Assembly: GCF_053078305.1 (NCBI RefSeq)
Contig: NZ_CP166879.1
DNA length: 64,000 bases
Strand: one strand, 5' to 3'
The position numbers and the translations under genes are program-made. Below are positions 49,851 through 61,688 of the stretch, piece after piece; positions within the stretch are counted from its first letter, which is position 1; each line of letters begins with the position of its first letter. The notes below the pieces were generated by a model that did no database searches, had not been told where the DNA came from, and worked only from the letters and a program-made list of their open reading frames with translations.

Positions 49851-49979
49851 TTATGTCTATCATCTCCCCGTAGTTGTCCGCATCGTTCGCCAACTCCACT
49901 GAAACCCTTGCTGCGGCTGGAATGTCGTTTTCCATACTTTTGATGACCGTTCATCACACTTCCAGGTTTTCGCGGTTTT

Positions 49980-50032
49980 GTGTATTGCAATGTGTATTGC
50001 AAATTGGCGATCGGGATGGGTGTGTATTGCAA
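49980..50032. repeat. Three direct copies of GTGTATTGCAA upstream of int (putative integrase arm sites)
   Basis: Copies at 49980, 49992 and 50022; two further copies at the right end (61588-61610). Confidence 0.6.
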
Positions 50033-50050
50033 ATCTCTTGAGGGCTGTTA

Positions 50051-51292
50051 ATGGCTATTGAAAACAAACTCAGTGACAAACTGTTAAAGAGTCTTGTCGG
50101 AAAACGGCAGGACAAACAAAAAACAATAGCGGATGGGCGCGGGTTGTCTGTGCGTGTAAGCATGGTTGGGGGGATCAGCTTTGTTTTTTACTATCGTCTT
50201 GGTGGCAGGGAATCCCCTCCGGTATGGCTTACACTTGGGCGCTATCCTGATATGTCTCTTGCAACAGCCAGGCGCATGCGTGATCAGTGCCGTGAGTGGC
50301 TGGCTGAAAATCTGGACCCCCGCAGGCAAATAAAACTTGCCGCCGAAAAAACCATGCAACCAGTGACCGTAAGGGATGCGCTGTTTTACTGGTACGACAA
50401 TCACGCCACAACAGCCAGAAAAGAGCATGAATATTTAATAAAACGATTTGAAAAGCATATCTTCCCCTATATCGGTGATATGGCTATAGAACAGTGCAAA
50501 TTACACACATGGCTTGCCGTCTTTGACAGGATCAAAAAAAATGCGCCTGTTATGTCTGGTGCAATTTTTCTTGATATCAAACAGGCGTTGCGTTTTTGTC
50601 GCGTCAGGCAATACATCGCGTGCGATCCCTTTGGCGATATTAACGTAAGTTATGTCGGGCGCTCATCCGGTATAAGGGATCGCGTTCTTAATATCAATGA
50701 AACAGCGGATGTATGGTCTTATGCTTACGGTAATAATTTGCTGACACTGTCATCAATACATAACAGAAGAATAATGGTTATCTGCCTGGTGTTTGGTTGC
50801 CGTCAGCAGGAGGCGAGGTTATCCACATGGGACGAATGGGATTTAAAAAACTGGGTATGGACAGTCCCAAAAGAGCACAGCAAAAACAAGGAGGCCATAG
50901 TAAGGCCTGTTCCTGACGGCATAAAACAATGGCTCGTTAATCTTTACGCAGAAACAAAAAATCGCGGTTATGTTGTCGGTTGTGCTTTGCAAAGGGCGAC
51001 AATAACAGGGGCTGCAAACAGAATATGCAGGCGTCTTGGTCATGATATTAATGGCTTGTGGTGCATACATGATTTCAGGCGCACATTTTCCACTGCGCTT
51101 AATGATATGGGGGCGGATCCTTATATTGTCGAACTTCTTTTAGGTCATAAAGTGAAAGGGGTTGCCGGTGTTTACAATAAAAGCAGGCATATAAAGAAAA
51201 AACTTGAGGTGCTTAATATGTGGGTTAATTACCTTAATACGATAGCAGGATTTAACAACAACGTTATCGAGCTTAATAAAGAGGTGGTGTGA
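50051..51292 (+). CDS. int: Tyrosine integrase (P4-like family)
   Basis: 413-aa protein with integrase catalytic-domain motifs (HDFRRTF, C-terminal Tyr region). Confidence 0.85.
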   Translation: MAIENKLSDKLLKSLVGKRQDKQKTIADGRGLSVRVSMVGGISFVFYYRLGGRESPPVWLTLGRYPDMSLATARRMRDQCREWLAENLDPRRQIKLAAEKTMQPVTVRDALFYWYDNHATTARKEHEYLIKRFEKHIFPYIGDMAIEQCKLHTWLAVFDRIKKNAPVMSGAIFLDIKQALRFCRVRQYIACDPFGDINVSYVGRSSGIRDRVLNINETADVWSYAYGNNLLTLSSIHNRRIMVICLVFGCRQQEARLSTWDEWDLKNWVWTVPKEHSKNKEAIVRPVPDGIKQWLVNLYAETKNRGYVVGCALQRATITGAANRICRRLGHDINGLWCIHDFRRTFSTALNDMGADPYIVELLLGHKVKGVAGVYNKSRHIKKKLEVLNMWVNYLNTIAGFNNNVIELNKEVV

Positions 51293-51293
51293 T

Positions 51294-51551
51294 ATGGCAA
51301 TTTATTCTCTTGTTGATGAAAACGATTTGCGCACAATGAAGGACATTGATCGGTTCATTCGTGAAAAAGAGTGCATAGCACTTACCACGCTGGCAAACTC
51401 AACACGCTGGAAAATGGAGCAGGCAGGTAAATTCCCGCGACGTATCAAGATCGGTGAACGTGCGGCAGGGTATCGACTTTCAGAGGTTCAGGCATGGATC
51501 CGTGGTGAGTGGCATCCTGGATGGAAACCTGGAAAAACAAAACAGCAATAA
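51294..51551 (+). CDS. alpA: AlpA-family transcriptional regulator / excisionase
   Basis: 85-aa HTH protein immediately after int. Confidence 0.65.
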   Translation: MAIYSLVDENDLRTMKDIDRFIREKECIALTTLANSTRWKMEQAGKFPRRIKIGERAAGYRLSEVQAWIRGEWHPGWKPGKTKQQ

Positions 51552-51605
51552 CCAGTAAATAACGCCCCTCATCAAGAGGGGTTTTTGTCTATAGGGTAAA
51601 ACGCG

Positions 51606-52184
51606 ATGAATAAAAATATTGCCGTGACGGGCAAGGGGTACGCTCGTCCAGTGAAAAAATTCTGTGATATTCGTGATCTTGTCGTTCTGCGCTTTGATGG
51701 TGTGAGCGTTCGCGTGGTGTATGTGAACGGCGATCCGTGGTTTGTTGCCGTTGACGTGTGCGCTGCGCTGGAAATTGTTGATCACAAGGTTGCGTTACGC
51801 CGTCTCGATGATGATGAAAAGGGGGAGTGTTTAATACCCACCCCAGGTGGAAATCAAACAATGCGAACGGTATGCGAGTCAGGGTTCTACAAACTAATCG
51901 CCAGAAGTCGGAAAGCTGTTACTCCTGGCACGTTCGCCCGTCGTTTCAGTAACTGGGTATTCAGAAATGTGATACCAGGTATCAGAAAAACGGGGGCTTA
52001 TGGTATCCCGTGGGGGGCATTACAGGATTTTTCCCGCCGTAAAGAGCAATATCAAATAAGTGCCAGCGAGAAGGGGAGGGAGCTACAGGCATGTAAGCGC
52101 AAAAAACGTGAACTGGAGGAAGAAGAAAAAAGGCTGATACGTGAATATCAGCCTGAGTTTTACTTTGGTGAGCGTATTCAGTAA
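51606..52184 (+). CDS. Bro-N domain protein (putative antirepressor)
   Basis: N-terminal pattern VRVVYVNGDPWFVAVDVCAALEI typical of Bro-N/antirepressor domains. Confidence 0.55.
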   Translation: MNKNIAVTGKGYARPVKKFCDIRDLVVLRFDGVSVRVVYVNGDPWFVAVDVCAALEIVDHKVALRRLDDDEKGECLIPTPGGNQTMRTVCESGFYKLIARSRKAVTPGTFARRFSNWVFRNVIPGIRKTGAYGIPWGALQDFSRRKEQYQISASEKGRELQACKRKKRELEEEEKRLIREYQPEFYFGERIQ

Positions 52185-52520
52185 CCACACGCGGTGCTGA
52201 TTATACGGTACATCGTGTTAACCGAGAAGCTACCCACCAGCAAGGCAAAATCTTCTGCTAAAAAATGACATATGGCCAGTCGTCCGGAAAGCATGAAATT
52301 TTACAAAAATGGAAAATGAAGATTTTTATTGTGCTGGTGGGTAAAAACAAAAAGCGCCCCGTTGCCGGAGCGCCCTTGTGAACAATTAACCTGCTGCGAA
52401 AAAATTGGATCAGTGCAGGGAAATTATATCAACTGTGTGAAGAAGCGCCACAATTGCCAGTTTAGCTTTGCGGCGAACGCGTCAATAAAGAATATTCTTT
52501 CTTTAAATTCTGTTTGTGTA

Positions 52521-52550
52521 TTTTTTCGTAGTTTTTCGTAGTTTTTCGTA
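52521..52550. repeat. Three tandem 10-bp repeats (GTTTTTCGTA)
   Basis: ttttttcgta gtttttcgta gtttttcgta; related TTTCGTAG palindrome at 61195-61211. Confidence 0.85.
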
Positions 52551-60544: not shown

Positions 60545-60724
60545 CAGACGCGCAATTATTGAACAAAAGTAAGGCCCGACATGAAATCACCCAAAAATGC
60601 CTTTTTCATGCGTTTGTATGTCTGACCTTTTACGGTTTCGATATTATAAAAAACAAATAGTTACGCTCGAGAGGTACCGACACGCATTTTTCAGGAAAAT
60701 TTTCATAAACAGATAAAAACCGCG

Positions 60725-60736
60725 AGGTCGCCGCCC
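60725..60736 (-). other. Second cos-like site in inverted orientation
   Basis: aggtcgccgccc is the reverse complement of cosN; flanks on the minus strand resemble cosQ/cosB. Confidence 0.6.
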
Positions 60737-60800
60737 CGTAACGGGCCATAATTCCAGGAAGGACCCGACGACACCAGGCTATCAGAACGATGAGGGCACA

Positions 60801-61082
60801 ATGACAGAAGCCGAACTACTGGGATTAATCCGCTACGTTACCGGAATCAGCCAGCAGCATGACGAACAGGCCACGCAGCCGGACAGCGTGACCGCTGAAA
60901 ATTATGCGCGTGTTGTTGCTGAGGTGATGCGCCGTGATGGTATCCAGCTTAATGATGCAGATATGCGCGACATACGGATCCGCGTTCTTGAAATGCTGGC
61001 CTACCGTCGCCGCGTGCAGACGTACAGGGAAAAAGCAAAAATAACGTACCAGTGGAAGAAGCCGGAGCGATTACGGCGGTAA
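60801..61082 (+). CDS. Hypothetical protein
   Basis: 93-aa ORF. Confidence 0.35.
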   Translation: MTEAELLGLIRYVTGISQQHDEQATQPDSVTAENYARVVAEVMRRDGIQLNDADMRDIRIRVLEMLAYRRRVQTYREKAKITYQWKKPERLRR

Positions 61083-61127
61083 CTTGCTGATATTCCCGAT
61101 AACGCAAAATTGCGCTCTGTCCTAACC

Positions 61128-61259
61128 CGTTGATATTTTCGGGAACAGCCAACGGCTGAGGCCGGAACAACGATTATCTTTCAGATAGTCAGAGCTACGA
61201 AATTTTCGTAGTTTAATTACTCGCCAGTTTATCGTTAACTCGTTGATATTTTCGGTAAC
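61128..61259. repeat. Two 19-bp direct repeats flanking a perfect 17-bp palindrome
   Basis: cgttgatattttcgggaac at 61128-61146 and cgttgatattttcggtaac at 61241-61259; palindrome ctacgaaattttcgtag at 61195-61211. Confidence 0.8.
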
Positions 61260-61587
61260 CTCAATTTGAGGAGATCGGAAACATAACCCTTCACATTCTG
61301 AATGGTTATAATGACCACTCAGACCATCAAGGCAACCATAACGAACATCGTTACGGTTGGAGCTTTTACCCCACTGGGGGGAAGGTGCACATCTGGATCA
61401 TCATTACCGTGATCAAGGGTATGTAAAACCCACCAGCCTGATTAACTGTTAACCGGAAAAAAGCCAGGTAGCCAATCTCGATATGGGGATCCCCATATCG
61501 ACATTAACGCCCCCTAGAACTGCGCATATCTGCATATAAAAACATCCACCAGCTTTATGACGGATGCCGCTCATCTGATAAATAATC

Positions 61588-61610
61588 GTGTATTGCAATG
61601 TGTATTGCGA
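61588..61610. repeat. Two direct copies of GTGTATTGC(A/G)A at the right end (putative integrase arm sites)
   Basis: Same 11-mer as the three copies at 49980-50032, same orientation. Confidence 0.6.
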
Positions 61611-61688
61611 CTCCTTTAAACGATAGGTTTGAGCATTCGTAATGTACTGTTTTTAAATTTTATTTTTTCCTGTCTTTTCATAAAAGCC

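Follow-up and report, generated by a model that had tools for sequence, protein, structure and literature searches.

The interrupted portal gene and its helper prophage

The ORF list and translations of the window (the whole 64-kb stretch of DNA that was analysed) showed that the lambda-type portal gene B of a prophage is interrupted between codons 276 and 277. The insert covers about 49849-61688 (11,840 bp) and has a GC content of 0.43-0.52, compared to 0.55-0.64 in the flanking late genes. The features of the prophage, referred to here as the helper, and of the two junctions are as follows:

28825..28839, - strand: tRNA-Arg 3' fragment CTGCAGGGGACACCA, where the helper prophage composite has its chromosomal att end
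46187..46198, + strand: helper cosN GGGCGGCGACCT, upstream of nu1 and terminase A
46376-46921, + strand: nu1 (from the annotation of the related prophage L002)
46896-48821, + strand: terminase A (from the annotation of the related prophage L002)
49021..49848, + strand: N-half of portal gene B, 276 codons, ending in ...QSAIVKA
49843..49850, + strand: attL core AAGGCGAT, the canonical identity block of site B:Phage_portal_2:241
61683..61690, + strand: attR core AAAGCCAT, mismatched to the attL core at positions 3 and 6
61689..62462, + strand: C-half of portal gene B, 257 codons plus stop, opening with ATG at 61689

The helper prophage spans from the tRNA-Arg fragment past the right end of the window, its right half lying outside. 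No intact tRNA was detected in the window with ARAGORN, only the tRNA-Arg att fragment being present, and the 150 nt around this fragment match the published att string tRNA-Arg.Eco1978.58.R exactly.

When 49021-49848 and 61689-62462 were joined in frame, a 533-aa ORF without stop or frameshift was obtained. It aligned to the lambda portal protein B (PDB 8k38) over residues 1-533 on 1-533 with 0 gaps and 530/533 identical residues (three substitutions, 99.4% identity). The initial annotation had placed the split after codon 276 and had predicted an intact 533-aa portal, and both hold. Its left coordinate of 49850, however, is 2 nt too far to the right: a join there shifts the frame, whereas a join at 49848 is in frame. 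Similarly, the 10-mers that it gave for the junctions (gcgatttatg and gccatgtatg) are present and identical at 8/10 positions, but they lie a few bases to the right of the canonical identity block AAGGCGAT.

The ORF of the portal N-half runs into the insert for 17 codons and stops at 49902. These 17 codons are unrelated to the portal, and no portal-like sequence is found on the satellite side of attR, which means that attP brings no replacement sequence. Since the insert does not replace the missing part, the portal would be producible only once the satellite excises, and we infer that the prophage is portal-defective until then.

Integration module, cargo and affiliation of the insert

The insert carries the following features between its two cores:

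49979..50002, + strand: downstream doubled motif tgTGTATTGCaatgTGTATTGCa, starting 132.5 nt past the core centre
50021-50032, + strand: extra single motif copy, beside the doubled motif tgTGTATTGCaatgTGTATTGCa
50051..51292, + strand: tyrosine integrase, 413 aa (PHROG 1 integrase, E=1.6e-58)
51294..51551, + strand: AlpA-type excisionase/regulator (PHROG scan)
51606..52184, + strand: Bro-N / anti-repressor family protein (phrog_2593, E=1.5e-78; annotated as BRO-N in L001)
53558-53634, + strand: isrK-like RNA (Rfam, 66.0 bits, above the gathering score)
53656-53743, + strand: C4 antisense RNA (Rfam, 77.6 bits, above the gathering score)
54968..56377, + strand: RepA-family helicase / primase-helicase-like replication protein (phrog_2850, E=1e-222, plus primase/helicase families)
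56828..57238, + strand: single-stranded DNA-binding protein, SSB (phrog_44, E=1e-38)
57967..59022, + strand: major capsid protein of the lambda gpE family (phrog_29, E=1.4e-107)
59034..59369, + strand: head decoration protein, gpD-like (phrog_49, E=4e-27)
59857..59868, + strand: satellite cosN, the exact lambda 12-mer
59990..60544, + strand: Nu1-type small terminase homologue, terS (phrog_57, E=9e-52)
60725..60736, - strand: second cosN 12-mer, inverted, with about 75 nt of cos-like flank
61587..61609, + strand: upstream doubled motif cgTGTATTGCaatgTGTATTGCg, starting 94 nt ahead of the attR core

Helper-embedded phage-inducible chromosomal islands (PICIs), or HE-PICIs, were defined by Tommasini, Mageeney and Williams 2023 (PMC10111431; NAR Genom Bioinform 5:lqad036). 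In their survey, 491 elements are distributed over 14 sites within lambda-cognate late genes; one of these sites is B:Phage_portal_2:241, for which 76 attL/attR entries are published (PMC10111431). The attL, attR and helper att strings of the window are identical to those of the published entry Eco1978.12.B_Phage_portal_2_241 and its helper Eco1978.58.R, which is located at tRNA-Arg (PMC10111431). The initial annotation had taken the arrangement to be undescribed; HE-PICIs have been in print since 2023, and the element itself corresponds to entry Eco1978.12 of the supplement (PMC10111431). The arrangement is thus already known, and the insert appears to be a rediscovery of the catalogued element or a near-identical copy of it.

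As placed at the start of the insert by the initial annotation, int and alpA were found at 50051-51292 and 51294-51551. Int is 99% identical to the integrase of a canonical element of the same site (L001), 53% to that of 11capE, the founding HE-PICI, and 41% to that of a chromosomal PICI (L173). By pairwise identity, it falls in the B:241 subclade of the 11capE-related clade. The + strand has no terminator-like hairpin from the portal N-half through alpA; the earliest one follows alpA at 51564-51582.

Direct repeats near both ends of the insert had also been reported from the sequence. These GTGTATTGCAA repeats correspond to the doubled motif published for HE-PICIs (tgTGTATTGCantgTGTATTGCa), which flanks the attP core on both sides at fixed spacing; the position of the downstream doubled motif agrees with the published 132+/-2 (PMC10111431). 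The motif TGTATTGC occurs on the + strand at 49981, 49993, 50023, 61589 and 61601, so that five of its nine + strand copies in the 64 kb fall within 150 nt of the insert ends. Measured from the core start, the two doubled motifs lie at 138 and 94 nt, as they do in the canonical element L001, whereas a search of the chromosomal PICI L173 gave no match to the strict doubled-motif pattern.

Downstream of the integration module, the isrK-like and C4 RNAs are relatives of the P4 seqA/CI immunity RNA, and matches of both kinds have been reported in the Bro zones of HE-PICIs (PMC10111431). The RepA-type gene is annotated as 'helicase RepA family protein' in related elements. In the late zone, the capsid protein is 42% identical to that of a related helper-type prophage; in a model element, the PICI capsid gene was dispensable for transfer. 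The satellite cosN lies upstream of terS, in a stretch of 115 nt that repeats the helper cos region, and the Nu1 homologue shares 36% identity with the Nu1 of the helper. None of the satellite ORFs examined is truncated. A 464-aa ORF at 52595-53989 (+ strand) was treated as spurious, as it overlaps a family-supported - strand ORF (52933-53253) and the RNA genes.

The middle 9 kb of the insert are 85-94% identical to the chromosomal PICI L173, which adjoins roxA/phoQ. Judged from these identities, the insert is a mosaic in which the integration module and att arms of an HE-PICI are joined to Bro, replication and late zones of the chromosomal PICI type.

The main satellite genes all lie on the + strand like the late operon in which the element sits, and the four zones follow in the order Integration, Bro, Replication and Late within 11.84 kb, inside the 10-20 kb of gram-negative PICIs. 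The element shares with the B:Phage_portal_2:241 group its target codon, att strings and integrase clade, the TGTATTGC arm motif with its spacing, the co-orientation with the late operon, the zone order and the size. Its one departure, and no substantial one, is in the cores: most of the 76 entries of the group list the 8-bp block AAGGCGAT, whereas Eco1978.12 and Eco10735.12 share only a contiguous 'AT'. Taken together, it is highly probable that the insert is an HE-PICI of this group, integrated by its own Int in portal codons 275-277, with an excision model and a mosaic origin that we propose from the comparisons.

The same junction is recurrent. A screen of 5426 complete E. coli genomes recovered the left junction of portal N-half, int and alpA, at 98% identity, in 62 of them. 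Including int, it is 98.2% identical to NZ_CP015912.1, and the corresponding GenBank record CP015912.1 carries the published member Eco4028.11. Moreover, the whole region is 99.993% identical to one IMG/VR contig. An empty site with an intact portal (attB gtgAAGGCGATgtatgcc) was found in the related prophage L002 at the same chromosomal locus, so the occupied and empty sites proposed for comparison were both recovered. Helpers in the supplement of Tommasini et al. sit at differing chromosomal sites (tRNA-Arg, icd and ybhC), which, together with the 62 genomes, argues for repeated independent integrations. With a codon-precise, recurrent insertion point and an empty attB, the claimed site-specific insertion of a tyrosine-integrase satellite into the portal gene of its helper stands.

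Related satellites and a proposed life cycle

Eco567.11capE, found in capsid gene E of prophage 50icd in E. coli NRG857c (compared here as NC_017634.1), is likewise embedded in a lambda-type late gene in the same orientation. It shares with the insert int-alpA, an SSB gene and capsid and decoration genes of its own. It differs in its target (E:Phage_cap_E:80), in a primase in place of the RepA-type helicase, in the lack of terS and in the presence of a DUF262/HEPN pair. Gram-negative PICIs such as EcCICFT073 (Fillol-Salom et al. 2018, 2019) resemble the insert in size, in the order of int, alpA, replication and late genes, in the lambda-type cos, in a capsid gene homologue and in their dependence on lambdoid helpers. 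In addition, EcCICFT073 has two cos sites. In contrast, PICIs of this type occupy chromosomal gene sites apart from the helper, and in EcCICFT073, which lacks terS, packaging is redirected by Rpp; the insert, by comparison, encodes a full-length Nu1 homologue.

The initial annotation had called the satellite P4-type, for which a gram-negative PICI has to be substituted. P4 also carries a tyrosine integrase, an AlpA-like regulator and CI/seqA RNAs related to the C4/isrK type. However, PHROG scans of the insert revealed no homologues of Sid, Psu, Delta or the alpha-primase, and P4 has a P2-like helper and a tRNA-gene site, whereas the insert has a lambdoid helper and a phage-gene site. A further class, the capsid-forming PICIs (cf-PICIs), has a component set that includes portal, protease and head-tail connectors. 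The cf-PICIs are described as encoding all of their own capsid and packaging proteins, with only tails taken from the helper. The insert does not fit this class: of such components, the PHROG scans gave only homologues of the major capsid, decoration and small terminase proteins and neither a portal nor a large terminase, and one 137-aa ORF had a weak partial match to the C-terminus of a protease family.

For 11capE, the only HE-PICI with experimental excision data, qPCR and deep sequencing showed that the composite excises first, that replication follows and that the satellite then leaves at 2-3 h; neither helper nor satellite virions could be detected (PMC10111431). A corresponding order of events is likely for the portal-site element. 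After SOS induction, the composite of helper and satellite would excise and replicate. Q-dependent late transcription would then pass through the terminase genes and the portal N-half and reach int and alpA, and Int and AlpA would excise the satellite and restore an intact portal gene. The satellite may replicate with its own helicase and SSB and be packaged at its own cos by the large terminase of the helper, probably redirected by the Nu1 homologue of the satellite. Its particles would be built mainly of helper proteins.

Mismatched attachment cores and alternative readings

The attL and attR cores are identical at 6/8 positions, and the two mismatches fall exactly on two synonymous positions of the portal gene. 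An identity block, at which strand exchange takes place, usually comprises about 7 bp or more, whereas in this copy only 'AT' is contiguous. The TIGER identity block of Eco1978.12 is accordingly listed as 'at', yet the entry is filed as a member of the group; the mismatch is not discussed in the main text of that paper (PMC10111431).

We searched for AAAGCCAT elsewhere. As attB or attR it had no matches in the 5426 E. coli genomes, metagenomes yielded chance 21-mer matches only, and a pattern demanding the lambda-type right flank retrieved none in IMG/VR. With a looser pattern it was found at three satellite attR sites in IMG/VR. The supplement of PMC10111431 holds three published cases, and as attR the sequence adjoins three different portal right flanks. 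A scan of one divergent portal allele family showed that AAAGCCAT is a common native attB core there. The idea that AAAGCCAT is unique to the window was dropped on these findings. Likewise, a unique mutation after integration or a rare attB allele of this prophage was set aside in favour of a variant of the satellite attP.

It looks as if the attP core of the satellite, AAAGCCAT, matches another portal allele and the satellite integrated into a AAGGCGAT portal despite the mismatch, which would leave attL and attR differing at two of eight core positions. The same mismatched configuration has at least two origins with differing portal right flanks (Eco10735/L032 and Eco1978/L033). In lambdoid portals, the two third-codon core positions are dimorphic (AAG GCG vs AAA GCC) and nearly always change together, and the attP cores of satellites show the same two variants. 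Across the 113 empty sites in one allele family, polymorphism affects 31 of the 154 other third-codon positions, so that two polymorphic core positions are just mildly unusual (about 0.04). Three of the ten consensus differences that separate the two haplogroups are found no more than 10 nt from the core; this is suggestive of variation concentrated near the core, in a redundant and pattern-selected sample. We tentatively consider, as a possibility with the odds against it, that this integrase clade tolerates two overlap mismatches or exchanges strands elsewhere, and that integration/excision cycles or selection on helpers to evade embedding shape synonymous variation in the portal; the main text of the 2023 paper does not take up these ideas.

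Tyrosine recombinases usually need identity in the overlap, and the mismatch should therefore reduce excision. If it blocked efficient excision, the prophage would be permanently portal-less and both elements would be decaying. The two mismatches within the 8-bp block and the TIGER block of just 'at' fit such a locked state, as do the many HE-PICI helpers that look truncated or abandoned (PMC10111431). We nevertheless regard it as unlikely. The satellite ORFs are full length, Int is nearly identical to the canonical one and the joined portal is undamaged. Furthermore, a mismatched configuration that arose at least twice indicates that the integrase can recombine across heterology, and the barrier to excision then equals that to integration.

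If an ordinary chromosomal PICI had landed in the prophage by accident, without any evolved link to the portal site, the similarity of the middle 9 kb to L173 and the imperfect core match to this attB would be accounted for. Such an off-target insertion is very improbable: Int belongs with the canonical B:241 integrase and is distant from that of L173, both att arms, with the doubled motif not found in L173, match the clade dedicated to the portal site, and this site is used recurrently. A misassembly that placed the insert in the portal gene is in effect refuted, given junctions in 62 finished genomes of unrelated hosts, in IMG/VR contigs and in the 76 published entries, as well as the codon-precise insertion point and conserved arm motifs. 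That the insert is native to the portal family, as an intein, intron or domain insertion, can practically be dismissed, since the two halves, once joined, show no gaps against lambda gpB, the near-identical prophage L002 has an empty site and genes for an integrase, replication and packaging are present in the insert itself; it is thus not a conserved internal part of this family.

The preferred reading remains that of an HE-PICI integrated at the portal site. As a virus parasite, it would keep the portal gene of its helper broken until the satellite leaves, a system that was named, surveyed and partly tested in 2023 (PMC10111431). The element adds no new type to it, being already catalogued. 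Its lasting use is as a concrete natural case of integrase recombination across a mismatched core, which could help to map the true strand-exchange region of this integrase clade and could test whether helpers escape embedding via synonymous changes of the target site.

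A split portal gene in the helper prophage

Comparison with L002, a related prophage at the same locus with an intact portal, showed that positions 1-28800 are ordinary E. coli flank containing yfdE, evgSA, emrKY, dsdA and the csc sucrose genes. The helper prophage occupies a tRNA-Arg site, and its left end carries a torI-type excisionase. In its late operon the portal gene B is divided by an 11.84-kb insert, of which the GC content is below that of the late genes on both sides.

Lambda-type late operon of the helper around the insert (ORF list)
46376-46921, +, nu1
46896-48821, +, terminase A
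48818-49024, +, W
49021 (start) to 49902 (stop), +, portal ORF, N-part; departs from the lambda sequence after ...QSAIVKA
61689-62462, +, second portal piece, from an ATG (MYAATIES...)
3' of the second portal piece, +, C protease gene

Joining 49021-49848 to 61689-62462 restored a 533-aa ORF that aligned with lambda portal protein B (PDB 8k38), 1-533 on 1-533, without gaps and with three substitutions. The split described in the initial annotation is therefore real and the join that it proposed to align is seamless, but its left coordinate was 2 nt off: joining at 49850 causes a frameshift, and the true left boundary is 49848. In the integrated state, 49021-49902 is predicted to encode a truncated portal of 293 aa, including a 17-residue foreign tail read from the satellite.

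The left junction (portal N-half, int and alpA) was present at full length and ~98% identity in 62 of the 5426 finished E. coli genomes, in many hosts. One of these 62, L001, which carries the canonical element of the portal site group B:241, has an identically split portal with a 10.9-kb insert. Furthermore, over the entire insert plus flanks, the IMG/VR contig L033 and the window share 99.993% identity. The 62 genomes and L033 rule out an assembly artefact. The L002 prophage is 98% identical to that of the window and lies at the same chromosomal locus adjoining cscB; its portal is unbroken, with gtgAAGGCGATgtatgcc at the site, which rules out that the insert is a native part of the portal. 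Relatives with an occupied (L001) and an empty (L002) site, for which a search had been suggested, thus both exist.

Relation to the published helper-embedded PICIs

Tommasini, Mageeney and Williams (2023; PMC10111431) mapped 491 helper-embedded PICIs (HE-PICIs), which occupy 14 sites spread over nine lambda-cognate late genes; three of the mapped sites are in B. Genes A, B, C and E hold 97% of them, and the founding HE-PICI, 11capE, is named as sitting in capsid gene E. The group B:Phage_portal_2:241 (B:241) comprises 76 attL/attR entries in the supplement, usually with the identity block 'aaggcgat'. Among these, Eco1978.12.B_Phage_portal_2_241 (JPQG01000003.1/742941-754779; 11,839 bp) has Eco1978.58.R as helper. 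The attL and attR strings of the window are those of Eco1978.12, rare attR core included, and the tRNA-Arg att string of Eco1978.58.R is window 28940-28790 (minus strand). Because these three strings are identical, the window is, judging from its att sites, the catalogued composite or a near-identical copy.

The arrangement had initially been thought undescribed, which does not hold, as the kind of element is known and this instance is catalogued (PMC10111431). The proposed mechanism, a prophage kept defective until the satellite excises, is in line with the published interpretation; its authors proposed 'regulated gene integrity' in the satellite's service. For 11capE treated with mitomycin C, qPCR and deep sequencing revealed composite excision, then replication, then satellite excision at 2-3 h, while virion recovery was unsuccessful (PMC10111431).

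The integrase of the window is 99% identical to that of the canonical B:241 element, 53% to that of 11capE (taken from NC_017634.1) and 41% to that of a chromosomal PICI. HE-PICIs carry a doubled motif, tgTGTATTGCantgTGTATTGCa, on either side of the attP centre, 81+/-2 bp away on the upstream side and 132+/-2 bp away on the downstream side (PMC10111431). The GTGTATTGCAA direct repeats noticed earlier near the insert ends are present and correspond to this motif. Counted from the start of the respective core, the motif lies 138 nt downstream at attL and 94 nt upstream at attR, with equal offsets in L001. The downstream copy starts 132.5 nt from the core centre, in agreement with the published spacing. 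In the chromosomal PICI L173, a search for the strict doubled motif gave no match. Whereas the published HE-PICIs have two doubled copies, the window and L001 share an extra, single GTGTATTGCAA copy at 50021-50032, 20 nt 5' of the int start codon.

BLAST resolved the insert into three blocks. Two of them match L001: the left one, with the integration module and the Bro-N gene (up to 52182), at 96.7% identity, and the right arm (61423 onwards) at 98.5%. The intervening 9 kb is 85-94% identical to L173, which is integrated adjoining roxA/phoQ in strain RM14516. Because of this mosaic structure, none of the finished E. coli genomes reaches 80% coverage of the insert.

Gene content and cos sites of the satellite

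Four gene zones were described for HE-PICIs, of which the Bro zone includes the C4/isrK RNAs (PMC10111431).

Features of the insert
50051-51292, tyrosine integrase
51294-51551, AlpA
51564-51582, +, first terminator-like hairpin of this strand after AlpA
51606-52184, Bro-N/anti-repressor protein
52933-53253, minus, YlcI/YnfO-like gene
53558-53634, isrK-like RNA, above the Rfam gathering score
53656-53743, C4 antisense RNA, above the Rfam gathering score
between C4 RNA and helicase, several small conserved ORFs
54968-56377, RepA-family helicase
56828-57238, SSB
57967-59022, gpE-family major capsid protein, 42% identity with its counterpart in a related helper-type prophage
59034-59369, decoration protein
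59990-60544, Nu1-type small terminase, 36% identical to helper Nu1
right end, ~600 nt, non-coding

No homologues of portal, large terminase, Sid, Psu or Delta were found in the insert, which by gene content sets the satellite apart from both capsid-forming PICIs and P4-like satellites. Since a simple scan found no + strand terminator-like hairpin from the portal N-half to the end of alpA, helper late transcription could run into int and alpA. Two 45-nt direct repeats (61123-61167 and 61236-61280; 73% identical, 113 nt apart), which contain GTTGATATTTTCGG, precede the arm motif in the non-coding right end and may represent a protein-binding site or an origin.

At 59857-59868 (+) the satellite has an exact copy of the lambda cosN 12-mer, within a 115-nt stretch that repeats the helper cos region (46155-46269). 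A second exact copy at 60725-60736 (-) is inverted relative to the first; the pair flanks the satellite terS, and both copies have cos-like flanks. The inverted pair also occurs in L173 and in L031, L032 and L033, three IMG/VR contigs with a satellite attR, whereas L001 has a single site. EcCICFT073 is also known to have two cos sites; why some PICIs have two was a question posed by Fillol-Salom et al. 2019 (PMC6739421).

The mismatched attachment core

The attL core reads AAGGCGAT (49843-49850) and the attR core AAAGCCAT (61683-61690). They differ only at the two third-codon positions of the core (AAG to AAA, GCG to GCC), both synonymous in the portal reading frame. Around this core, the window attR and the canonical attR are identical over ~55 nt on the left and 113 nt on the right. 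The variant attR core adjoins three different portal right flanks (L031, L032 and L033 in IMG/VR; Eco14761.12, Eco10735.12 and Eco1978.12 in the supplement); therefore, as far as these flanks tell, the variant goes with the satellite side. The terms 'mismatch', 'heterolog' and 'synonymous' are absent from the main text of PMC10111431, and the paper's table gives the identity block of Eco1978.12 as just 'at'.

In Eco14761.12 the attL core is likewise AAAGCCAT. Of the empty sites among the 120 IMG/VR matches listed for the divergent portal family that flanks it, 32 had AAAGCCAT and 85 had AAGGCGAT. As well as being a variant of the satellite attP, AAAGCCAT is a common native allele of the portal. 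A rough test was only suggestive of portal variation being concentrated at the core. L031 and L033 (UViG_2617271340_000001 and _000010) come from the same isolate genome; L033 is the near-identical composite, and on L031 there is another satellite attR with the variant core, beside the divergent portal allele. This genome probably has a portal-embedded satellite in each of two different prophages; the L031 contig stops short of the second attL.

The simplest reading is that a satellite sub-lineage, with an attP core fitting the divergent portal allele, would also have integrated into lambda-type AAGGCGAT portals. Integration across the variants would leave the phage-type core at attL and the satellite-type core at attR. 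Such a history would imply either that the overlap region of this integrase accommodates two mismatches or that strands are exchanged further right than core position 6. Excision of the window copy would face the same heterology that integration already passed, so it may be slowed and is not necessarily locked. What is still of value in the window is this mismatched-core case, together with the second, inverted cos site.
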